A stretch of 43,689 nt of DNA, taken from positions 1 through 43,689 of the IMG/VR virus record IMGVR_UViG_3300045988_038444; one strand, given 5' to 3'. This DNA comes from a virus (taxonomy: Duplodnaviria > Heunggongvirae > Uroviricota > Caudoviricetes). Under the pieces are notes generated by a model. It ran no database searches. It was not told where the DNA came from and worked only from the letters and a program-made list of their open reading frames with translations. Position numbers and translations under genes: made by a program. Shown piece by piece: positions 1 through 9,164 of this stretch (the first letter of the stretch is position 1; every line of letters begins with the position of its first letter).

Positions 1-105
1 CCTGTAGCAGCGCCTACACCAGCGGCAGCACCTGTAGCAGCGCCTACACCAGCGGCAGCACCTGTAGCAGCGCCTACACCAGCGGCAGCACCTGTAGCAG
101 CGCCT
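1..105 (+). repeat. Coding tandem repeat, 30-bp unit cctgtagcagcgcctacaccagcggcagca x3 plus a partial fourth copy
   Basis: Three exact 30-bp copies at 1-90 and a diverged partial copy after; in frame 1 they encode PVAAPTPAAA repeats. Confidence 0.9.
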
Positions 106-249
106 GTGAAGGTGATGACTGAAAAAGCAGGTGGTGTAACTTACGAACAGTTTATTGCGCAAGGTTGGAACGATGAACAACTGATCGCTAACGGTTATAT
201 GGTAATGACCACCCCGGCCCCGAATTTTCTCAACGGTAACGGTTACTGA
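1..249 (+). CDS. 3' part of a Pro/Ala-rich repeat protein (5' end lies outside or across the window edge)
   Basis: Frame 1 is open from nt 1 to TGA at 247-249; encodes (PVAAPTPAAA)x3 then KVMTEKAGGVTYEQFIAQGWNDEQLIANGYMVMTTPAPNFLNGNGY. Not in ORF track because no start in window. Confidence 0.5.
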   Translation, partial: PVAAPTPAAAPVAAPTPAAAPVAAPTPAAAPVAAPVKVMTEKAGGVTYEQFIAQGWNDEQLIANGYMVMTTPAPNFLNGNGY

Positions 250-289
250 TAGTTACTGGAACTGGGACGACATACCGCTTTAAACAGAC

Positions 290-312
290 ATGGGGCCATA
301 GTGCCCCATTTA
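290..312 (+). promoter_or_regulatory. Conserved 17-nt element ccatagtgccccattta (copy 1), with 7-bp hairpin atggggc/gccccat
   Basis: Sits 16 nt upstream of ATG 328; same 17-mer recurs at 595-611 upstream of the next gene. Confidence 0.3.
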
Positions 313-327
313 TCAACGAGGTATAAA

Positions 328-582
328 ATGAATCAAGAACAATTTGTACAAGAACAAGAAATGTTTGAAAAATTATCTTTAGAAGACCAATTGTCATACG
401 TAAAGAAACACGGAGTGATTCAAAAAAGATTTAATAGCGTTTTAAGAACTTCCCGTGAAAATTTTGGTAAATTTTATTTCGCGTATGAAGTGCAAAACGG
501 TTATGGGTGGCGATTTGCACGCGCTTCTACAAAAGAAGAAAGTGATCGGTTATATAATGAATGGGTCAATAAGCGTTCATAA
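328..582 (+). CDS. Hypothetical protein
   Basis: Track ORF 301..582; start moved to internal ATG 328 (MNQEQFVQ...) preceded by gagg and matching the arrangement of the next gene. Confidence 0.5.
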   Translation: MNQEQFVQEQEMFEKLSLEDQLSYVKKHGVIQKRFNSVLRTSRENFGKFYFAYEVQNGYGWRFARASTKEESDRLYNEWVNKRS

Positions 583-594
583 CTGAAAACGGGA

Positions 595-611
595 CCATAG
601 TGCCCCATTTA
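595..611 (+). promoter_or_regulatory. Conserved 17-nt element ccatagtgccccattta (copy 2)
   Basis: Exact 17-nt repeat of 296-312; 18 nt upstream of ATG 629. Confidence 0.3.
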
Positions 612-628
612 CTTATCAGGGTTTTATT

Positions 629-2485
629 ATGTCAGATGCTTACGTTCACGATATTGAAAACTATCCTAATGTTTTTCTGTTCGGTGCTATTCACGCGTTA
701 ACTGAAACACCTTATATTTTTGAGATTTCACATCGTCGCGATGATCGTCAGGCTTTTTACCTGTTCACAGAATATTTGCGTGAACATCGTGCTGAAGAAG
801 TTGGTTATAACAATCTGGGTTACGACTATCCTGTTCAGCATTCTATTTTGAACAACATCATGTATATCACCAACGCAGACATTTACAAAAAAGGTGATTC
901 GATAATTAACGCTGGTGATGAAAATCGTTTTGCTCATATGGTGTGGGAAAAAGACTGGATAGTTCCCCAACTTGATTTGTATAAAATTCATCATTTCGAC
1001 AATCAGGCAAAACGAACAAGTCTGAAAACACTTGAATTCAATATGAGAATGGAAAACATTGAAGACCTTCCGTTTACCCCAGGGACTTATTTAACCGATT
1101 CTCAAATTGATACGCTTCGTCAATATCTGATACACGATTTGAAAGCGACTTTGATGTTTTATAAACACAGTAAAAAGCTGATAGATTTTCGTCGTGAACT
1201 TTCTGCTAAATACGGTCGTAATTTCATGAACCATAATGACACGAAAATCGGTAAAGACTATTTCATTATGGAACTTGAAAAATCAGGTATTCAATGTTTC
1301 GAACCGTGTAGCAGAAAACCACGACAGACGCACAGACCATCAATCGCATTGAACAGTGTGATTTTCCCTTATGTCCGTTTTGAACAGCCTGAATTTAATC
1401 GTGTTCTTAACTGGTTACGTCAGCAGGTCATCACTGAAACAAAAGGTGTATTTACAGATTTAAGCGCAGACATTAACGGGTTCTCGTTTGATTTTGGTAC
1501 GGGTGGTATCCACGGGTCTATTGAATCTCAAACTATCAGGTCCACTGAAAATTATGTGATCATCGATCTGGACGTTGCCAGTTTTTACCCGAACCTTGCG
1601 ATCAGTAATGAACTTTATCCGGCACATCTGGGAAAACAATTTTGCACCATTTATAAAAATGTTTACGACATGCGTTCCAGTTACCCGAAAGGTACACCAG
1701 AAAATGCAATGTTAAAACTGGCGTTAAACGGTGTGTATGGTGACAGTAATAACGTATACAGTCCATTCTACGATCCTGCTTATACAATGGCTATTACGAT
1801 TAATGGACAGTTACTTTTGTGCATGTTGGCTGAAGAACTTCTGAAAATCCCTGGTTTGTCCATGATCCAGGCTAACACAGATGGTCTTACGGTTTACGTA
1901 CCACGAGTGTTTACCGGACAAGTAGAACAGGTTCGTCACGCGTGGGAAAAATTAACCAGACTCCAGCTTGAAGAAGCGATTTATGACGTGATGTTTATTC
2001 GCGATGTAAATAATTACATCGCTGTTTATGAAGGCGGTAAGAAAGTTAAACGTAAAGGCGCTTATTGTCACAGTGTTGATCTGGGTTGGCATCAAAACCA
2101 CAGTATGCAGGTTGTTGCAAAAGCGGCTGAAGCAGCACTGGTACACAATAAAGACATTCATGATTTTATAACATCACACGAAGACATTCACGATTTCATG
2201 TTAGTGACGAAAGTACCGCGTAACAGCAAGTTATTATGGGGTGATAAACAGGTTCAGAACATTACCCGTTATTACGTCAGTACAGATGGTGCACCTTTGA
2301 CAAAAGTCATGCCACCGCTGGCAAAATCACTGAAACTGAACCCTGATGCGCCTGAACGCCGCATGTCCGTGTGCAAAGGTTGGTTGACCACTGAGTGCAA
2401 CGACATGAAACGTTTTAACCGGGCAACGCTAAATTATGATTTTTACATCAAAGAAGCTGAAAAACTCGTTGCACCACTTCGGTAA
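629..2485 (+). CDS. Family B DNA polymerase, compact phi29-like (protein-primed type) with 3'-5' exonuclease motifs
   Basis: 618 aa. Motifs read directly: HDIENYP (Exo I DxE), YLIHDLKA (Exo III-like), DLDVASFYPNL (motif A, Dx2SLYPS-like), KLALNGVYGDS (motif B, Kx3NSxYG-like), ANTDGLTV (motif C-like). Confidence 0.7.
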   Translation: MSDAYVHDIENYPNVFLFGAIHALTETPYIFEISHRRDDRQAFYLFTEYLREHRAEEVGYNNLGYDYPVQHSILNNIMYITNADIYKKGDSIINAGDENRFAHMVWEKDWIVPQLDLYKIHHFDNQAKRTSLKTLEFNMRMENIEDLPFTPGTYLTDSQIDTLRQYLIHDLKATLMFYKHSKKLIDFRRELSAKYGRNFMNHNDTKIGKDYFIMELEKSGIQCFEPCSRKPRQTHRPSIALNSVIFPYVRFEQPEFNRVLNWLRQQVITETKGVFTDLSADINGFSFDFGTGGIHGSIESQTIRSTENYVIIDLDVASFYPNLAISNELYPAHLGKQFCTIYKNVYDMRSSYPKGTPENAMLKLALNGVYGDSNNVYSPFYDPAYTMAITINGQLLLCMLAEELLKIPGLSMIQANTDGLTVYVPRVFTGQVEQVRHAWEKLTRLQLEEAIYDVMFIRDVNNYIAVYEGGKKVKRKGAYCHSVDLGWHQNHSMQVVAKAAEAALVHNKDIHDFITSHEDIHDFMLVTKVPRNSKLLWGDKQVQNITRYYVSTDGAPLTKVMPPLAKSLKLNPDAPERRMSVCKGWLTTECNDMKRFNRATLNYDFYIKEAEKLVAPLR

Positions 2486-2524
2486 ACCGTATAGAATTAT
2501 TTAAAACTTATTGAGGCGATAACA

Positions 2525-3061
2525 ATGCATACTTCACACAAATTTGTAACTGGTTCACCGATTGGTGTCTTTACTCCCGGTAAAATTTACAACCGTGTTG
2601 ACGGGTTCACCCGTGACGGTCGTTCCCGTGGTTTTTATATTGATGACCGTGGTGAATTCCGTTTAACAGATGATGATATGTTCGAACCTGCAGAACAGAT
2701 CCAACTGCGTTTACCACAGATGCCAATGTTTCCGGCCCGTCAGGAACGTCTTAAACTGGCTGCACGCTGGGGAACGTCTGAAATCAGTATCAGTAACTGG
2801 TACAAAGTTGATGACCTGATGAAACCGTGGCGCATCGGTGACGCTATCTGTGGTACTCGTGTTCTTACAGAACCTAATACAACGACGTTTAAACCCGGTG
2901 AACTGGCTGAACTGGCTAATTCCCGTGGTTATCTGCTGTCAGAATTATCCGTTCGTTGGGGGTGGCATTATGGATGTGAAACTTTACACACTATCAGCAT
3001 GGATCCGCGTCGTGTTGCGCTTATCTGGGATATGTTAGAAGGAATGAATCGTCATGACTGA
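2525..3061 (+). CDS. Hypothetical protein
   Basis: 178-aa ORF, ATG start, packed in plus-strand operon. Confidence 0.5.
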   Translation: MHTSHKFVTGSPIGVFTPGKIYNRVDGFTRDGRSRGFYIDDRGEFRLTDDDMFEPAEQIQLRLPQMPMFPARQERLKLAARWGTSEISISNWYKVDDLMKPWRIGDAICGTRVLTEPNTTTFKPGELAELANSRGYLLSELSVRWGWHYGCETLHTISMDPRRVALIWDMLEGMNRHD

Positions 3062-3401
3062 TTACAGTAAGATGGATGATAGAGATATTGATCGCCTTGT
3101 TTTGAAAGTTATTTACGGTGTTCATGCTGACGATAAAGATATCCAAGGTTGTTGGTCACGGGGCGGTTTCAAATATACCACTAATCCGACTGACGCAATG
3201 CCGATTATTATTGAAAATAAAATTAGTATTGTTTCAACAGATTCATCGTGGATCGCTTTACCTGACAATGCTGCTATTGATGGAATTACTGGTGATGCGA
3301 CAGAAATGATTTATGCGGATGACTCATGTGTTATTCACGCTAACCCACTCCGTGCCGCAATGATTGTGTTCTTACAGATGCAGGAAAACAACCATGATTA
3401 A
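3054..3401 (+). CDS. Hypothetical protein
   Basis: 115-aa ORF overlapping neighbours by a few nt (coupled arrangement). Confidence 0.45.
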   Translation: MTDYSKMDDRDIDRLVLKVIYGVHADDKDIQGCWSRGGFKYTTNPTDAMPIIIENKISIVSTDSSWIALPDNAAIDGITGDATEMIYADDSCVIHANPLRAAMIVFLQMQENNHD

Positions 3402-3744
3402 ACTCTGTTACATTGCCGGGCCTTATCGTGCTGATTGTGCGCTTAAAACATCCCGTAACGTGTCGCGCGCTGAACAGGCAGGTAAACGACTTGCTTTACA
3501 ACGTCCGGGGTGGTTCCCGGTTATCCCTCACAAGAACACCGAATTGTGGGACTTTGACGGCGGTTTACGCAATATACAACCCGAATACTACTTGTCAGGC
3601 ACATTAGAAGTTATGCGCCGTTGTGATGCCGTTCTGGTACTTCCTGATTATCGTCGTTCGTCCGGGACTATTGCGGAAATTGCAGAAGCTGAACGTCTGG
3701 GTATTCCTGTGTATTACAGTGTGGAGAGTATCCCACATGGTTGA
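3394..3744 (+). CDS. Nucleoside 2-deoxyribosyltransferase-like protein (DUF1937/DUF4406-type fold)
   Basis: Start taken at internal ATG 3394 (MIKLCYIAGPYRA...). N-terminal IAGPY motif and C-terminal SSGTIAEIAEAERLGIPV resemble the NDT family catalytic Glu motif. Confidence 0.45.
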   Translation: MIKLCYIAGPYRADCALKTSRNVSRAEQAGKRLALQRPGWFPVIPHKNTELWDFDGGLRNIQPEYYLSGTLEVMRRCDAVLVLPDYRRSSGTIAEIAEAERLGIPVYYSVESIPHG

Positions 3745-4516
3745 TGTTAAGTTATTTAATCAAGATTGTTTGTTCATGATGAACTTCATTACTGAAAAAT
3801 CTATTGATTTAATTCTTACAGATCCTCCGTATGGTACAACTGCTTGCAAATGGGATTCGATAATAGATTTAGATTTAATGTGGTCAAATTTAAATCGAAT
3901 CATTACGGATAAAGGGGCAATCGTTCTTACGGCAACACAACCATTTGCAAGTATTTTAGTAAATTCAAACATCAAAATGTTTAAATACGATTGGGTGTGG
4001 AATAAATCAAAACGAACTGATTTTGTAAGAGCAAAACTAAAACCAATGGGTGGTCACGAAAGCGTTTTGGTTTTCAGTAAAGGTTCTGTTGCGAATGGTG
4101 CATCTTCAATGATGAACTATTACCCACAAGGTTTGAAACGTATTAATAAAGTAGCTAAAAACGGCGGCGGTGGTTCTGGTTTTTTGGGTCGTAATGGTGA
4201 AAATTTAGGACCAAATAACAAGCTACACAAACCTACGTATATTCAAGAATTTACAGGATACCCATGCACTCAATTGAATATTCAGAGTGAGAATAAAACA
4301 GTTCATCCCACGCAAAAACCTGTAGAGTTAATGGAATATCTTATTTTAACTTACACAAAAGAAGGTGATACGGTTTTAGATTTCACAATGGGTAGTGGAA
4401 CAACAGGTGTTGCTGCCGTGAAAACTAATCGTAATTTTATCGGTATAGAGTTAGATAAAGAATATTTCGAAATTGCTAATAAACGTATTAATTTGGCATT
4501 GATGGGTATTTACTAA
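3737..4516 (+). CDS. DNA methyltransferase, beta-class N6-adenine/N4-cytosine type (DPPY ... FxGxG order)
   Basis: Start at ATG 3737 overlapping the upstream stop; motif IV DPPYG near N-terminus, motif I LDFTMGSGTTGVAA near C-terminus. Confidence 0.85.
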   Translation: MVDVKLFNQDCLFMMNFITEKSIDLILTDPPYGTTACKWDSIIDLDLMWSNLNRIITDKGAIVLTATQPFASILVNSNIKMFKYDWVWNKSKRTDFVRAKLKPMGGHESVLVFSKGSVANGASSMMNYYPQGLKRINKVAKNGGGGSGFLGRNGENLGPNNKLHKPTYIQEFTGYPCTQLNIQSENKTVHPTQKPVELMEYLILTYTKEGDTVLDFTMGSGTTGVAAVKTNRNFIGIELDKEYFEIANKRINLALMGIY

Positions 4517-4531
4517 CAAAGAGGATTGCTT

Positions 4532-4765
4532 ATGTCCACAATCGTTGAATTCAACCCTATGGATCCTGCTAAACGCCCGACAGGACGCTTTGCAAGATTG
4601 CCACAAACACGCGAACAGTTTTTTCCATTGTTAAACATGCGAGGGATTAAAACAGACCCACACGGGTTGATAGGAACATCCTTGTTTATGTACCGGACTG
4701 AATATCCGGTTCCTGCATCGTGGATTGAAGTATCGGTTGAAGATTTACTTAAGACTGTCTACTAA
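4532..4765 (+). CDS. Hypothetical protein
   Basis: Track ORF 4526..4765; ATG 4532 follows aagagga. Confidence 0.4.
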   Translation: MSTIVEFNPMDPAKRPTGRFARLPQTREQFFPLLNMRGIKTDPHGLIGTSLFMYRTEYPVPASWIEVSVEDLLKTVY

Positions 4766-4993
4766 CGCATTATGCATAGTTGCACATTTGAAATAAATAT
4801 CTAACCACTGGTCATTAACATCTGTTGAATCATTTCCTGTCAGACCGTTCAGCCGTGGAAGGTTTTCGGTCTGACACTTCTGAACTAATGCGGCCTGATA
4901 AACGGGCTTCTGCTTCGGTAACTCGTTCGTTGTACAGGCGTTGATATTCAGAAGTAAGACACTCATTACGAAAAACAGTATTAGTCTTTTCAT
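4745..4993 (-). CDS. Putative o-spanin (Rz1-like outer-membrane lipoprotein), start embedded in the i-spanin gene
   Basis: N-terminal signal-like MKRLILFFVMSVLLLNINAC with Cys after hydrophobic core; overlaps the 3' part of ORF 4830..5228 in another frame. Confidence 0.45.
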   Translation of the reverse strand: MKRLILFFVMSVLLLNINACTTNELPKQKPVYQAALVQKCQTENLPRLNGLTGNDSTDVNDQWLDIYFKCATMHNALVDSLK

Positions 4994-5228
4994 GTCGTAT
5001 TTCCACGATTTTAGTATTCTGTGACCAGCCAGCTAAACCACGAAGTACATCATCCGCCAGTTCCTGTTGTGCCTTTAACCGTTGTTGTTCCCGTTGTGCA
5101 TCGTCTAAACGTTCCTGACGTTCTTCATTTACCCGTACTTTATATCCCGCGTGGTAACACGTATACGCACCTACGCTTAACACAAGAACGGTCGCAACAA
5201 CGGTGATTAACACACTACGGGTTGTCAT
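4830..5228 (-). CDS. Putative i-spanin (Rz-like)
   Basis: N-terminal TMD (VLITVVATVLVLSVGAY) then charged coiled-coil-like region; position in lysis cassette. Confidence 0.5.
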   Translation of the reverse strand: MTTRSVLITVVATVLVLSVGAYTCYHAGYKVRVNEERQERLDDAQREQQRLKAQQELADDVLRGLAGWSQNTKIVEIRHEKTNTVFRNECLTSEYQRLYNERVTEAEARLSGRISSEVSDRKPSTAERSDRK

Positions 5229-5445
5229 TTGGCGTACCTCGTTGTTTATCTACAGCGATTTTTTTAGCACCAACATACTGACCTATACAGAAACCGAAAT
5301 AGGTTAACAACACTGTATCATCAAGTGTGCGGTCCACGGCCTGGTAAATCAGAATGCCTGTTACCACGAGGAAGCCTAAAGCCGCTTGTGCGCGGCTTAA
5401 AGAGATCCCCCCGGTTGTGTTACGTAATATACTGAATTTATCCAT
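5215..5445 (-). CDS. Small membrane protein, holin or antiholin candidate
   Basis: Start taken at internal Met (MDKFSIL...); hydrophobic segments ALGFLVVTGILIY and LLTYFGFCIG; next to endolysin. Confidence 0.4.
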   Translation of the reverse strand: MDKFSILRNTTGGISLSRAQAALGFLVVTGILIYQAVDRTLDDTVLLTYFGFCIGQYVGAKKIAVDKQRGTPNDNP

Positions 5446-5455
5446 GATTGTTATC

Positions 5456-5845
5456 TCACGCGGGATATTTCGCATGTGGTAACTGGAAGTGTGGACCATC
5501 TTTCAGTGTTTTCCAGTCACCACCCCATTCAACAGGGATATTCAGTTCTTTTGCAGCCTGTTTAAATGCAGTGGCAATTTGTTCGTAATACTTCCACTCC
5601 CACGACCCGGCAGATGTAGGATAAGCAAATACATCCACGGCGTGACCCGAAATATGGCGACTGTTCATCGTCTGACTTTTACCTGCAGCAACCAGTTGTC
5701 GTTGTCGTTCAACAGTTCGTAAACCTTCTGTGATACCGAAATCAACGGGTGATAACTGAAGTGCCCGACGCACGATTTTCACAAGATCTGAATTAACCCC
5801 TTTCAGATTATTTTCACTTCTCTGACTGAATTTAAAGTTACTCAT
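5456..5845 (-). CDS. Endolysin, L-alanyl-D-glutamate peptidase (peptidase M15, T5 Lys-like)
   Basis: 129 aa; ISGHAVDVF and WGGDW...DGPHFQL motifs typical of T5-type M15 endolysins. Confidence 0.8.
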   Translation of the reverse strand: MSNFKFSQRSENNLKGVNSDLVKIVRRALQLSPVDFGITEGLRTVERQRQLVAAGKSQTMNSRHISGHAVDVFAYPTSAGSWEWKYYEQIATAFKQAAKELNIPVEWGGDWKTLKDGPHFQLPHAKYPA

Positions 5846-6165
5846 TGCTTACTCCCGGTTTTACGTTGTTCCGCTTTCAAACCTTCAATAACAACTTTCA
5901 GGTCATTTGTTGACTGTGTTAGCTCTTTAACACTGGTGAGGATTTCAGCGTTCTGTGTTGCCTGATATTCAATTTTGATATCATGGACATCTACACGGGA
6001 TTCCACTCGTTTTGCCAGATTGAGCGCCTCGTGCGCATAGGTTTTTGCATCTACAATATCTTTTTCATTAGAATTGATTTGGTTTTGAGTTACCCCGTAA
6101 CCTACCAACCCCGTGGCAACAAATGCTATTATAGGCCAATACCTCAACACTGGGTTATCAGACAT
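5842..6165 (-). CDS. Membrane protein with N-terminal TMD and coiled-coil region (holin candidate)
   Basis: WPIIAFVATGLVGYGV hydrophobic segment; immediately upstream of endolysin with 4-nt overlap. Confidence 0.4.
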   Translation of the reverse strand: MSDNPVLRYWPIIAFVATGLVGYGVTQNQINSNEKDIVDAKTYAHEALNLAKRVESRVDVHDIKIEYQATQNAEILTSVKELTQSTNDLKVVIEGLKAEQRKTGSKQ

Positions 6166-6191
6166 TGTTCTACACTCCTGGAGACTTAAAG

Positions 6192-9164
6192 ATGGCTAAC
6201 TGTAACGATTATATCAGTGCTGATGATTTGAAAACAGGCAAACAAGCGATTTTACATATTGAACACGTTGCGAAAAGTCGTGATGCTAACGGTAATCATG
6301 CGTTGGATGTTACCGATACGATCCGTGATCAATCAGTTACCAACAAGACGCTTGATGGTTTAGAAAACCTGTACAATCAGGCTATATCTCAGGTTGGCTA
6401 TATCACAATGGATAGCTTCGAAGATGGCGCGACATTAACATTGCCTAACCAGGTGTTGCGATATAAGTCGACAGGAGAATATTACCGATGGGACGGTGAA
6501 TTTCCTAAAACCGTTTCTTCTGGTTCAACACCTGAAACTGCTGGTGGCGTTGGTCTTGGCGCGTGGGTTAGTGTTGGTGACGCTTCATTAAGAAGCCAGG
6601 TTTCTGACCCTGATGGCGCAACAAAATATCCAGATTTGCAGATCGCAAGATGGAGAGACACATTCGACCCGCGCGGGTGGAATGCAAAAGGTGATGGGGT
6701 CACCGATGACACCTCAGCGCTTAATGGCGTATTAAACGCCGCACCAGTTGGTCAGAAAATTAATGGCAATGGGAAGACATATAAGGTCACATCCCTGCCT
6801 GACATTAGTAGATTCGTCAATACTCGTTTTGTATATGAACGTATTCCTGGTCAGCCTCTTTTTTATGCTTCTGAAGATTTTATCCAGGGACAGTTATTTA
6901 AAATTACAGATACACCGTGGTACAACGCCTGGACGCAGGATAAAACGTTTGTATATGACAATGTCATCTATGCGCCTTTTATGGCTGGAGACCGCCATGG
7001 TGTAAATAACCTCCATGTTGCATGGGTTCGCTCAGGAGATGACGGGAAGACCTGGACAACGCCGGAATGGCTTACAGATTTACATGAAAACCATCCCACA
7101 GTTAACTATCACTGCATGAGTATGGGGGTTGTCAGAAATCGCCTTTTTGCTGTAATTGAGACGCGGACCGTGAGAGGAAATAAACTGCAGGTTGCAGAGT
7201 TGTGGGATCGCCCAATGAGTCGCAGCCTTCGCGTTTATGGTGGTATAACGAAAGCAGCAAATCAGCAAGTCGCTTATATTCGCATTACTGATCACGGATT
7301 ATTTGCTGGTGATTTTGTCAACTTCTCAAACTCTGGTGTTACAGGTGTTACCGGGAATATGACGGTGACTACTGTTATTGATAAAAATACTTTTACAGTT
7401 ACGACGCAAAATACCCAGGATGTGGATCAGAATAACGAGGGTGGATACTGGAGTTTTGGTACATCATTTCACTCGTCACCATGGAGAAAAACCAGTCTTG
7501 GAACTATTCCTTCTTTTGTTGACGGAAGCACTCCTGTTACTGAGATTCACAGTTTTGCGACGATTAGCGATAACAGTTTTGCTGTTGGCTACCATAATGG
7601 TGATATTGGTCCACGCGAGCTTGGGATACTCTATTTCTCTGATGCTTTCGGTTCTCCTGGTAGCTTTGTTCGCAGACGCATACCTGCAGAATATGAGGCG
7701 AATGCATCTGAGCCATGTGTAAAATATTATGATGGCATTCTGTATCTGACGACCAGGGGGACATTAAGTACTCAACCCGGTAGTTCATTGCACAGAAGCT
7801 CTGATTTAGGTATATCATGGAATTCTCTTCGCTTCCCAAATAATGTTCATCACTCAAACCTTCCTTTTGCCAAAGTTGGCGATGAGCTGATTATTTTTGG
7901 CAGTGAGCGCGCATTTGGTGAGTGGGAAGGAGGAGAACCTGATAACCGTTATGCAGGAAACTATCCAAGAACATTTATGACCAGAGTTAACGTCAATGAG
8001 TGGAGTCTGGATAATGTAGAGTGGGTTAATGTTACTGATCAGATTTATCAGGGCGGAATAGTTAACTCTGCGGTTGGTGTTGGTTCAGTTTGTATCAAAG
8101 ACAACTGGCTGTACTACATTTTCGGTGGGGAAGACTTTCTAAACCCATGGAGCATAGGGGATAACAACAAAAAATATCCTTATGTTCACGATGGTCACCC
8201 GGCTGATTTGTATTGTTTCAGGGTGAAAATTAAACAGGAAGAATTTGTTTCAAGGGATTTTGTCTACGGAGCCACTCCTAACAGAACGCTTCCTACTTTT
8301 ATGTCGACGTCAGGCGTGAGGACGGTTCCTGTACCCGTTGATTTCACAGATGATGTTGCCGTCCAGTCACTGACTGTCCATGCAGGTACATCAGGACAAG
8401 TTCGCGCGGAAGTCAAACTTGAGGGTAATTACGCCATTATTGCGAAGAAAGTACCGTCTGATAATGTTACCGCTCAGAGATTAATCGTTAGCGGCGGTGA
8501 AACAACGTCTTCAGCAGATGGTGCAATGATAACGTTGCATGGTTCCGGAAGCAGTACTCCACGTCGCGCGGTATATAACGCACTCGAACATCTTTTTGAG
8601 AACGGAGATGTTAAACCTCATCTTGATAATGTAAATGCTCTTGGTGGGCCTAGCAACCGTTTCACCACTGCATACCTCGGAAGCAACCCTATTGTTACTT
8701 CTAACGGAGAGAAGAAAACGGAGCCGGTAGTTTTTGATGATGCTTTCCTGGATGCCTGGGGTGACGTTCACTACATCATGTACAAGTGGTTAGATGCTAT
8801 TCAACTGAAAGGCAATGATGCTCGTATTCACTTCGGGGTTATTGCTCAGCAAATTCGTGATGTATTCATTGCACATGGTCTGATGGACGAAAACAGTACG
8901 GATTGTCGTTATGCCGTTCTGTGCTATGACAAGTATCCACGGATGACCGATATGGTATTTTCGCACAATGAAATCGTTGAACACACTGACGATGAGGGTA
9001 ATGTCACTACCACGGAAGAACCTGTATACACCGAGGTGGTTATTCACGAAGAGGGTGAGGAATGGGGTGTTCGGCCTGACGGAATTTTCTTTGCTGAAGC
9101 TGCTTATCAGCGAAGAAAACTGGAAAGAATCGAAGCCAGACTTTCTGCTCTTGAACAGAAGTAA
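6192..9164 (+). CDS. Tailspike: endo-N-acetylneuraminidase (endosialidase) with C-terminal intramolecular chaperone domain
   Basis: Track ORF begins at TTG 6165; ATG 6192 follows ggag. Asp-box SGDDGKTWT; C-terminal ~150 aa (DAFLDAWGDVHYIMYKW...IHFGVIAQQIRDVFIAHGL) resembles the self-cleaving chaperone domain of endosialidases and T5-type fibers. Confidence 0.75.
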   Translation: MANCNDYISADDLKTGKQAILHIEHVAKSRDANGNHALDVTDTIRDQSVTNKTLDGLENLYNQAISQVGYITMDSFEDGATLTLPNQVLRYKSTGEYYRWDGEFPKTVSSGSTPETAGGVGLGAWVSVGDASLRSQVSDPDGATKYPDLQIARWRDTFDPRGWNAKGDGVTDDTSALNGVLNAAPVGQKINGNGKTYKVTSLPDISRFVNTRFVYERIPGQPLFYASEDFIQGQLFKITDTPWYNAWTQDKTFVYDNVIYAPFMAGDRHGVNNLHVAWVRSGDDGKTWTTPEWLTDLHENHPTVNYHCMSMGVVRNRLFAVIETRTVRGNKLQVAELWDRPMSRSLRVYGGITKAANQQVAYIRITDHGLFAGDFVNFSNSGVTGVTGNMTVTTVIDKNTFTVTTQNTQDVDQNNEGGYWSFGTSFHSSPWRKTSLGTIPSFVDGSTPVTEIHSFATISDNSFAVGYHNGDIGPRELGILYFSDAFGSPGSFVRRRIPAEYEANASEPCVKYYDGILYLTTRGTLSTQPGSSLHRSSDLGISWNSLRFPNNVHHSNLPFAKVGDELIIFGSERAFGEWEGGEPDNRYAGNYPRTFMTRVNVNEWSLDNVEWVNVTDQIYQGGIVNSAVGVGSVCIKDNWLYYIFGGEDFLNPWSIGDNNKKYPYVHDGHPADLYCFRVKIKQEEFVSRDFVYGATPNRTLPTFMSTSGVRTVPVPVDFTDDVAVQSLTVHAGTSGQVRAEVKLEGNYAIIAKKVPSDNVTAQRLIVSGGETTSSADGAMITLHGSGSSTPRRAVYNALEHLFENGDVKPHLDNVNALGGPSNRFTTAYLGSNPIVTSNGEKKTEPVVFDDAFLDAWGDVHYIMYKWLDAIQLKGNDARIHFGVIAQQIRDVFIAHGLMDENSTDCRYAVLCYDKYPRMTDMVFSHNEIVEHTDDEGNVTTTEEPVYTEVVIHEEGEEWGVRPDGIFFAEAAYQRRKLERIEARLSALEQK

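Follow-up and report, generated by a model that had tools for sequence, protein, structure and literature searches.

Organization of the overlapping gene pair

In the present study, we analyzed 43,689 nucleotides (nt) of viral DNA of the class Caudoviricetes (IMG/VR record IMGVR_UViG_3300045988_038444; this whole stretch is called the window below), focusing on two overlapping genes, of which the first encodes a small protein resembling nucleoside 2-deoxyribosyltransferases (NDTs) and the second a DNA methyltransferase (methylase) that, judged by its sequence borders, is an exchangeable cassette. The NDT-like gene, assigned to DUF7768/DUF4406 in Pfam and to PHROG 355, runs on the plus strand from the ATG at 3394 to the TGA at 3742-3744 and encodes 116 amino acids (aa). 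The methylase gene follows on the same strand from the ATG at 3737 to the TAA at 4514-4516 and encodes a 259-aa enzyme that can be classified as an orphan of the beta class (PF01555; DPPY motif). The initial annotation had given these coordinates, the 116-aa length, the DPPY motif and an overlap of a few nucleotides, all of which were borne out by the open reading frames (ORFs) and the sequence. The longest mechanical ORF for the methylase begins at a GTG at 3623; the ATG at 3737 was taken as the true start because the homologues are about 250-260 aa long, because the gene is so annotated in Klebsiella phage Carvaje, and because DNA homology to the relatives breaks at 3728/3741.

The stop and start codons of the two genes overlap by 8 nt (3737-3744, plus strand, ATGGTTGA), which hold the methylase ATG and the NDT-like TGA, and a Shine-Dalgarno-like GGAGAG is present inside the NDT-like coding sequence at 3723-3728 on the plus strand, 8-10 nt 5' of the ATG at 3737. 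Promoter-like and terminator-like matches in positions 1-6300 were at or below shuffled expectation, with no signal above chance that would separate the two genes; a terminator-like match at 3719-3738 was rejected, as it has no T tract. The junction of the pair thus combines an overlap, an internal ribosome-binding site and an interval with no promoter or terminator signal above chance, the features expected of a coupled pair. From this arrangement, the NDT-like gene and the methylase are almost certainly co-transcribed and translationally linked, in agreement with the co-expression suggested initially. RNA structure enforcing the coupling was also considered and rejected, since the junction folds in four phages gave z values of -1.2 to +0.7 with no conserved hairpin; in the window, the junction RNA folds no better than shuffled controls (z = -0.33), with no occluding structure.

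The same kind of overlap is found at the two preceding junctions of the operon, namely between a 178-aa gene and a NinX-like gene (8 nt, ATGACTGA, at 3054-3061) and between the NinX-like gene and the NDT-like gene (8 nt, ATGATTAA, at 3394-3401). Because three consecutive junctions overlap by 8 nt, the overlap is an operon-wide feature that is not specific to the pair. In relatives with other methylases, the Shine-Dalgarno sequence is kept as GGAGAG or GGGAG, and all methylase variants overlap the 3' end of the NDT-like gene by 8 or 11 nt.

The NDT-like protein

The NDT-like protein passed the Pfam cut-offs for DUF7768 (PF24963; 36.4 bits against 26) and DUF4406 (PF14359; 30.4 bits against 22), the same domains being carried by 208 homologues, and it matched PHROG 355, 'nucleoside 2-deoxyribosyltransferase', at 3.8e-26. 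The score against the classical NDT family, PF05014 Nuc_deoxyrib_tr (EC 2.4.2.6), was 17.5 bits (E = 0.0046), below the cut-off of 28.8, so that by this score the protein falls outside that Pfam family. An AlphaFold2 (AF2) model built on 41 homologues reached a predicted local distance difference test score (pLDDT) of 96.3 and has the flavodoxin-like alpha/beta fold of the NDT superfamily. In Foldseek searches, this model matched 6EVS, 2A0K, 1T1J (DUF1937) and 8PQT at a probability of 1.00, and DNPH1, MilB and BcmB at 0.96-0.99 with template modelling (TM) scores of about 0.5-0.6, the top PDB fold matches being bacterial and trypanosomatid NDTs, 1T1J, DNPH1, MilB and BcmB. The initial label of this protein as NDT-like is therefore sound at the level of the superfamily, with both DUF domains above their cut-offs, the NDT fold and the catalytic Glu kept.

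In an alignment of 41 diverse homologues, Y6, G9, N22, A26, P45, C77, V80, S89, G91, E95, A99 and P105 were invariant, and R12, H46 and D78 were at least 90% conserved. The key residues are Y6 (codon at 3409-3411), R12 (3427-3429), D78 (3625-3627), the S89-x-G91 motif and E95 (3676-3678). HMMER alignments placed the YIAGP (YxAGP), CDAV and GTxxE motifs of the protein opposite their equivalents in the Trypanosoma brucei NDT and in BcmB, a CMP N-glycosidase, and because these motifs align, E95 is the counterpart of the catalytic Glu. The Tyr/Asp/Glu catalytic set of the superfamily is thus kept, and R12, six residues past Y6, is aligned with a Lys of BcmB in a marginal match (E 0.25). This basic residue might belong to a 5'-phosphate-binding loop after strand 1 (Ser/Arg/Gly), as in DNPH1-like N-glycosidases of deoxynucleoside monophosphates.

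Among known enzymes, DNPH1/Rcl and MilB/BcmB, which are nucleoside 5'-monophosphate N-glycosidases of the NDT superfamily, resemble the NDT-like protein in fold, in the N-terminal Y-x-x-G, in the Asp of the CDAV strand, in the Glu of G-T-x-x-E, and in a similarly small size without the classical C-terminal extension, and R12 stands where BcmB has its Lys. However, the sequence similarity to these enzymes is marginal, the TM-scores are those given above, and N22, P45-H46 and C77 are invariant or nearly invariant residues that the DUF7768-type family has of its own. The classical NDTs (PF05014; Lactobacillus, Trypanosoma, Bacillus psychrosaccharolyticus) provide the best structural matches, 6EVS and 2A0K, and share the Glu, Asp and Tyr, but differ in the PF05014 score and in the C-terminus, which in the NDT-like protein ends at residue 116, just past the last helix, whereas the classical transferases are about 40 residues longer (about 157). 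The segment that is lacking is the C-terminal part of the classical class I/II NDTs (about residues 110-157). In the Lactobacillus NDT, this segment completes the neighbouring active site.

In a pairwise comparison of seven NDT-like orthologues, the ratio of nonsynonymous to synonymous substitution rates (dN/dS) was 0.02-0.10, one very close pair excepted, with dS up to 0.97. Judged by these ratios, the NDT-like gene is under strong purifying selection, and because dN/dS is low we regard the gene as real and constrained. Its GC content is 0.487, compared with 0.429 for the window. At 50% identity and E <= 1e-3, the family comprises 16,759 cluster representatives, which makes it very large. According to a 2025 preprint, one phage NDT has a deoxyadenosine-preferring base-exchange (transferase) activity linked to diaminopurine genomes, whereas the assay detected no transfer by other phage NDTs (10.1101/2025.10.22.683976). 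By analogy with DNPH1, MilB and BcmB, the most likely reaction of the protein of the window is cleavage of the N-glycosidic bond in a (deoxy)nucleoside or its 5'-monophosphate, and its probable role would be to adjust or clean the nucleotide pool in phage DNA replication.

The methylase

The methylase matched PF01555 over the full domain (116.4 bits against a cut-off of 26.7; 2.4e-33) and the Type II methyltransferase model of PADLOC at 1.8e-73. Motif IV, DPPY, occupies residues 29-32 (3821-3832, plus strand), and the motif I (FxGxG) region with the S-adenosylmethionine-binding DFTMGSGTTG occupies residues 215-224 (4379-4408, plus strand), so that DPPY lies N-terminal to FxGxG in the permuted order of the beta class. 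The nearest PDB sequences were M1.HpyAVI, CcrM, M.MboIIA (aligned end to end), M.BceJIV and M.RsrI, and an AF2 model (pLDDT 88) matched CcrM, M.BceJIV, M.MboIIA and M.RsrI in Foldseek at 21-25% identity. The initial description as a DPPY DNA methyltransferase agrees with the PF01555 match and with these PDB sequence and fold matches. Adenine enzymes were closer to the methylase (E 1e-20 to 1e-13) than N4-cytosine enzymes (1e-10 to 1e-7), and N6-adenine is favored over N4-cytosine because of this greater similarity and the DPPY motif. The enzyme is thus probably a beta-class N6-adenine DNA methyltransferase, which shares PF01555, permuted motifs and top fold matches with M.MboIIA, CcrM, M.BceJIV, M.RsrI and M1.HpyAVI but is distant from the solved enzymes in sequence. 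Reading the methylation target from the solved relatives was ruled out, as the identity is so low and the best matches have unrelated targets; motif frequencies were rejected as a guide as well, since palindrome avoidance was seen with no single motif indicated.

The neighbors of the methylase are the NDT-like gene and a 77-aa gene, neither of which has nuclease domains. No endonuclease gene adjoins the methylase in the ORF list or in the Pfam, PHROG and PADLOC scans, an arrangement that differs from a Type II restriction-modification system, and the methylase is therefore regarded as an orphan; it is also the sole methylase-like ORF in the window. Orphan status and a position in the early operon are shared with the methylases of many phages. 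The clade to which the enzyme belongs is large and consists of about 250-aa enzymes in Vibrio, Flavobacterium, Lactococcus, Enterococcus and other phages.

Several palindromes are strongly avoided in the window relative to Markov expectation, including CCCGGG (0 observed against 15.6 expected), AAGCTT (0 against 7.1), GGTACC (0 against 7.0), GGCGCC (0 against 6.4), CAGCTG (1 against 9.2), AGCT (71 against 121) and CTAG (11 against 45). Such avoidance fits a genome exposed to restriction pressure.

Exchange of the methylase cassette among 9NA-like phages

According to its placement by megablast, the window is a 9NA-like siphophage. With positions 2500-4800 as the query, E. coli phages AVIO78A, PDP46 and Bas82 and Sashavirus BDX09P1 matched at 95-97% with a coverage of only 60-65%, and Klebsiella phage Carvaje at 88% identity and 88% coverage; for Salmonella phages Sasha and 9NA, the match (82-89%) was confined to the first half. 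An IMG/VR contig (L015 in our locus numbering) encodes an NDT-like protein that is 100% identical, and its DNA is 99.7% identical over 2500-5300. Counterparts of the pair are found as gp62 (NDT-like) and gp61 (methylase) in 9NA, as gp63 and gp62 in Carvaje, and in Sashavirus, Nonanavirus and Carvajevirus. GenBank records of these relatives already label the first gene 'nucleoside 2-deoxyribosyltransferase / DUF4406 / 2'-deoxynucleoside 5'-phosphate N-hydrolase' and the next a DNA methyltransferase; the pair is thus already annotated in public relatives and is an ordinary gene pair of 9NA-like phages.

The low-GC interval from 3729 to 4524 (plus strand), which contains the methylase, is without DNA homology to the closest relatives. 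The alignments with AVIO78A, PDP46 and Bas82 break off at 3728 and are taken up again at 4525; for Sasha and 9NA, the corresponding positions are 3741 and 4520. These breaks coincide with the borders of the methylase gene. The GC content of the gene is 0.337 and its GC content at third codon positions is 0.258, compared with 0.429 for the window. The methylase is 98.2% identical to that of Carvaje at the nucleotide level and 99% at the protein level, whereas the nucleotide identity to Carvaje drops to 68-85% in the surrounding genes; the flanking genes are 93-98% identical to those of AVIO78A. In AVIO78A, PDP46 and Bas82, which have the closest backbone, the same slot is filled by a Dam-type methylase of 173 aa (PF05869). 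A PF01555 enzyme of 393 aa stands there in 9NA and Sasha, and the methylases of other relatives are either PF01555 enzymes with lengths between about 360 and 517 aa or a Dam-type enzyme of 246 aa. The slot is thus occupied by at least two Pfam families (PF01555 and PF05869) and many length variants, and the window combines an E. coli-type backbone with a Carvaje-type cassette. These borders and identities indicate that the methylase is a precisely bounded foreign cassette, a finding that is new in this analysis, and that this copy was recently acquired from the lineage of Klebsiella phage Carvaje.

The long PF01555 methylases of 9NA-type relatives (L016-L020, L005, L006, L096, L097) are internal mosaics, in which the N-terminus is conserved and the centre diverges. 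For example, residues 1-129 of the 9NA and L016 methylases are 98% identical, the rest is 63% identical, and the lengths differ. This mosaicism suggests that the central target-recognition part has been exchanged as well as whole genes.

Neighboring genes and other features of the window

The gene order around the pair is that of the 9NA-like relatives, comprising a DNA polymerase gene (629-2485, plus strand, from the ORF list), the 178-aa gene (2525-3061, plus strand, from the ORF list), a NinX/DUF2591-like gene of 115 aa (3054-3401, plus strand, from the ORF list; Pfam Phage_P22_NinX, 25.9 bits against a cut-off of 22.6), the NDT-like gene, the methylase, the conserved 77-aa gene (4532-4765, plus strand; PHROG 25980 at 1.4e-53) and a convergent lysis cassette on the opposite strand. 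In these relatives, the NDT-like protein is 90-97% identical and the stop/start overlap is kept. The 77-aa gene is the last before the lysis cassette and is found 3' of each methylase variant in the relatives, forming the right-hand anchor of the methylase slot.

The NinX/DUF2591-like gene (equivalents in L001, L005, L095 and L096) is far more variable than its neighbors, with 68% nucleotide identity to Carvaje over part of its length and an alignment to Sasha over the first 173 nt only, and some Klebsiella relatives have two small genes at this position. After the lysis cassette, a 999-aa ORF with a TTG start (6165-9164, plus strand) lies where the relatives annotate a tailspike or tail fibre; this region differs among the relatives and looks like a host-range module. 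At the left end, positions 1-300 have a GC content of 0.53, compared with about 0.35-0.38 in the next kilobase, and a terminator-like hairpin on the minus strand (309-290) is present within the first approximately 300 nt.

Gene neighborhoods of DUF7768

In every member of the 9NA-like supergroup that was examined, the NDT-like gene lies directly upstream of a methylase; these members include the Proteus Gorganvirus, whose NDT-like protein is 60% identical, and the metagenomic lineage of contigs L101-L103 described below. Outside this group, neighborhoods were counted in 57 dereplicated IMG/VR loci, where about 80% of DUF7768 loci are without an adjacent methylase. The other neighbors included RusA, single-stranded DNA-binding protein, RNase T with PolA, MazG-like proteins, helicases, a MazZ-like dATP/dGTP diphosphohydrolase, deoxynucleoside monophosphate (dNMP) kinase, uracil-DNA glycosylase (UDG), ThyX, ligase and primase-polymerase. 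DUF7768 genes outside the 9NA-like lineage therefore lie mostly in replication, repair and nucleotide-metabolism modules. Among the IMG/VR loci L023-L094, a MazZ-like PF18909 protein (dATP/dGTP diphosphohydrolase N-terminal domain) directly follows DUF7768 in two, and a dNMP kinase or UDG lies directly downstream in others; these neighbors point to nucleotide-pool roles, possibly in diaminopurine-type phages.

Among cultured phages, the largest group consists of the chi-like Casjensviridae (about 100 records), in which DUF7768 is the last gene of the early operon, with a phosphoadenosine phosphosulfate (PAPS)-reductase-like gene upstream and no adjacent methylase. In Salmonella phage KFS-SE1 (L110, NC_048683.1), gp50 (45822-46508, minus strand) is annotated as 'phosphoadenosine phosphosulfate reductase' and is actually a homologue of Dam-type (NPPY) methyltransferases, matching the AVIO78A Dam-type enzyme in phmmer at E of about 1e-11; the idea that the chi-like phages are without any methylase was rejected on this ground. 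Three Logan contigs of a distant phage lineage (L101-L103, SRR334712xx; 3154-4277) encode a 116-aa DUF7768-like protein that is 28% identical to that of the window, followed by a methylase that is 77% identical. The DUF7768-like protein of these contigs has lost the SxG motif and kept the Glu, and the contigs have a 705-aa gene at the DNA polymerase position, a GDSL-lipase tailspike and a convergent lysis cassette after the methylase. Close homologues of the methylase are also found in unrelated contexts with no DUF7768 neighbor.

Discussion

Herein, we favor with moderate confidence the explanation that the pair represents two separable functions in one operon, a nucleotide/nucleoside N-glycosidase and an anti-restriction methylase cassette. 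The two genes, located towards the 3' end of the early (replication) operon, would be co-expressed and mechanistically separable. The NDT-like enzyme is predicted to hydrolyze (deoxy)nucleosides or their 5'-monophosphates during replication, keeping the pool in order, and the methylase is predicted to mark the phage DNA at a short motif, so that the host restriction enzymes cutting there would be blunted. Ribosomes ending the NDT-like gene might re-initiate on the methylase via the 8-nt overlap, the ordinary junction of the operon, and the swapping at the methylase slot among relatives would reflect host restriction pressure.

The initial annotation had suggested that the pair could be a DNA-modification or anti-restriction module. 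For the methylase, the anti-restriction part of this suggestion can be retained, as it is the standard assumption for such an enzyme and fits the swapping of cassettes at the slot. The idea of a dedicated modification module of both genes was not supported, since overlaps of this kind are general in the operon, relatives freely swap the methylase while the NDT-like gene is constrained, and DUF7768 genes elsewhere lie mostly beside replication, repair and nucleotide genes. In addition, no DUF7768-methylase fusions were found among the best 150 family representatives, and the ten long members have no methylase domain. Phage Bas82, which was described by the BASEL authors as markedly sensitive to restriction-modification systems and without a recognisable DNA-modification locus (PMC11990801), has the same backbone and NDT-like gene with its Dam-type methylase, which is a further point against a dedicated module.

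Several observations weigh against the explanation of two separable functions. In the neighborhood counts, a DNA methylase lies directly downstream of DUF7768 in 6/53 loci and directly upstream in 4/54, and one gene further out in 1/49 downstream and 0/44 upstream, giving 10/107 immediate against 1/93 next-but-one neighbors (Fisher one-sided p = 0.009, not corrected for shared ancestry among the loci). DNA methylase is the most frequent recognisable family directly beside DUF7768 genes, often with 4-nt overlaps, and because the DUF7768 proteins at these loci are mostly about 28-60% identical (one pair, 83%), several lineages are behind this adjacency. The adjacency also persists in contigs L101-L103 despite the low identity of the DUF7768 protein, and in KFS-SE1 the Dam-type homologue and the DUF7768 gene share an operon, the former being 4.5 kb upstream. 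Taken together, the adjacency, the lineage of 28% identity and the chi-like Dam homologue hint at a functional link that separable functions do not need. Moreover, because Bas82 carries a methylase and is still restriction-sensitive, any protection conferred by these methylases is narrow. A further point is that no biochemical or experimental report on DUF4406 or DUF7768 proteins was found in the literature.

Such a link would be expected if the pair were a functional module in which the NDT-like N-glycosidase serves the methylase. The N-glycosidase might destroy by-products that inhibit methyltransferases, such as S-adenosylhomocysteine (SAH) or methylthioadenosine-type nucleosides, or it might hydrolyze methylated (deoxy)nucleotides, e.g. 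N6-methyl-dAMP, and so keep new DNA clear of them, comparable to the removal of hydroxymethyl-dUMP by DNPH1. The intact catalytic residues, the enrichment of methylases beside DUF7768 in unrelated lineages, and the adjacency that stays constant in the examined 9NA-like supergroup even though the methylase is replaced all argue for this possibility. However, most DUF7768 loci have no adjacent methylase, the whole chi-like clade has another gene beside DUF7768, fusions were absent from the best 150 representatives, and the enrichment statistic ignores shared ancestry. The partner also comes from either of two families of different structure, PF01555 or PF05869, which speaks against specific binding between the two proteins, and the host already has an SAH nucleosidase, which in E. 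coli is Pfs/MtnN. We therefore consider a module of this kind doubtful. It is also conceivable, with a distinctly lower probability, that the methylase serves mainly phage physiology (expression, replication or packaging, as with Dam in the packaging of phage P1) and that the NDT-like gene is unrelated to it. An orphan methylase in an early operon with no endonuclease would fit such a role, as would the marked restriction sensitivity of Bas82 despite its own methylase (PMC11990801). Free swapping across Pfam families is hard to reconcile with sequence-specific regulation and is expected from a restriction arms race, and the strong avoidance of 6-bp palindromes in the window indicates restriction pressure, so that this role seems quite improbable.

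Two more specialized functions are less probable still. Phage methylases of the Dcm and Dam types act as triggers of retrons; in one of these, Ec86, an NDT-like effector depletes adenine nucleosides (10.1101/2023.08.16.553469, PMC12548924). The NDT-like protein might counter such retrons as a decoy, a poison subunit or a restorer of nucleosides. This would account for the place of the gene beside the trigger gene and is in keeping with the NDT fold and the methylase association. However, no PADLOC defence model, retron effectors included, matched the 116-aa protein at E <= 0.1, no retron effector structure was among the top 50 fold matches of the model, the invariant catalytic residues suggest an enzyme and not a decoy, and the DUF7768 family is far more widespread than the retron type would need. 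Bas51 of the Vequintavirinae has a 'glycosidase' that co-triggers a retron, and no Vequintavirinae appeared in the organism summary or among the 60 listed rows of DUF7768 tblastn matches. A retron-related function is thus very unlikely. Synthesis of a non-canonical base, in which the NDT-like protein would exchange the base and the methylase would complete a hypermodification, seems similarly remote. Base exchange is a known reaction of NDT enzymes, one such enzyme from a phage has been proposed to act in the 2,6-diaminopurine pathway (10.1101/2025.10.22.683976), and MazZ-like genes adjoin DUF7768 in two other viral contigs. On the other hand, no further modification genes were seen around the pair, a single methylase-like ORF is present in the 43.7-kb window, the 116-aa protein has no C-terminal segment like that of the classical transferases, and the BASEL authors saw no recognisable modification locus in this restriction-sensitive phage group (PMC11990801). 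Overall, the analysis gave no firm indication that the two proteins act as a single machine, and a functional link between them appears rather unlikely, leaving two separable functions in one operon as the favored explanation.

Biological significance

The slot after the NDT-like gene provides a clean natural example of methylase cassette exchange, including a recent transfer between Klebsiella and Escherichia phage lineages, and such exchange bears on the prediction of restriction evasion and host range of therapeutic phages. With more than 16,000 cluster representatives, intact catalytic residues and a recurrent, moderate adjacency to methylases, the DUF7768/DUF4406 family also offers a concrete biochemical hypothesis. 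Tentatively, and at a fairly low probability, DUF7768 might be a widespread class of phage N-glycosidases tied to DNA methylation, clearing by-products or methylated nucleotides or offsetting a cost of the methylase, e.g. methylation-sensing retrons. If true, this would account both for the constant presence of an adjacent methylase, of whichever family, across the 9NA-like supergroup and for the recurrence of the adjacency in unrelated phages.

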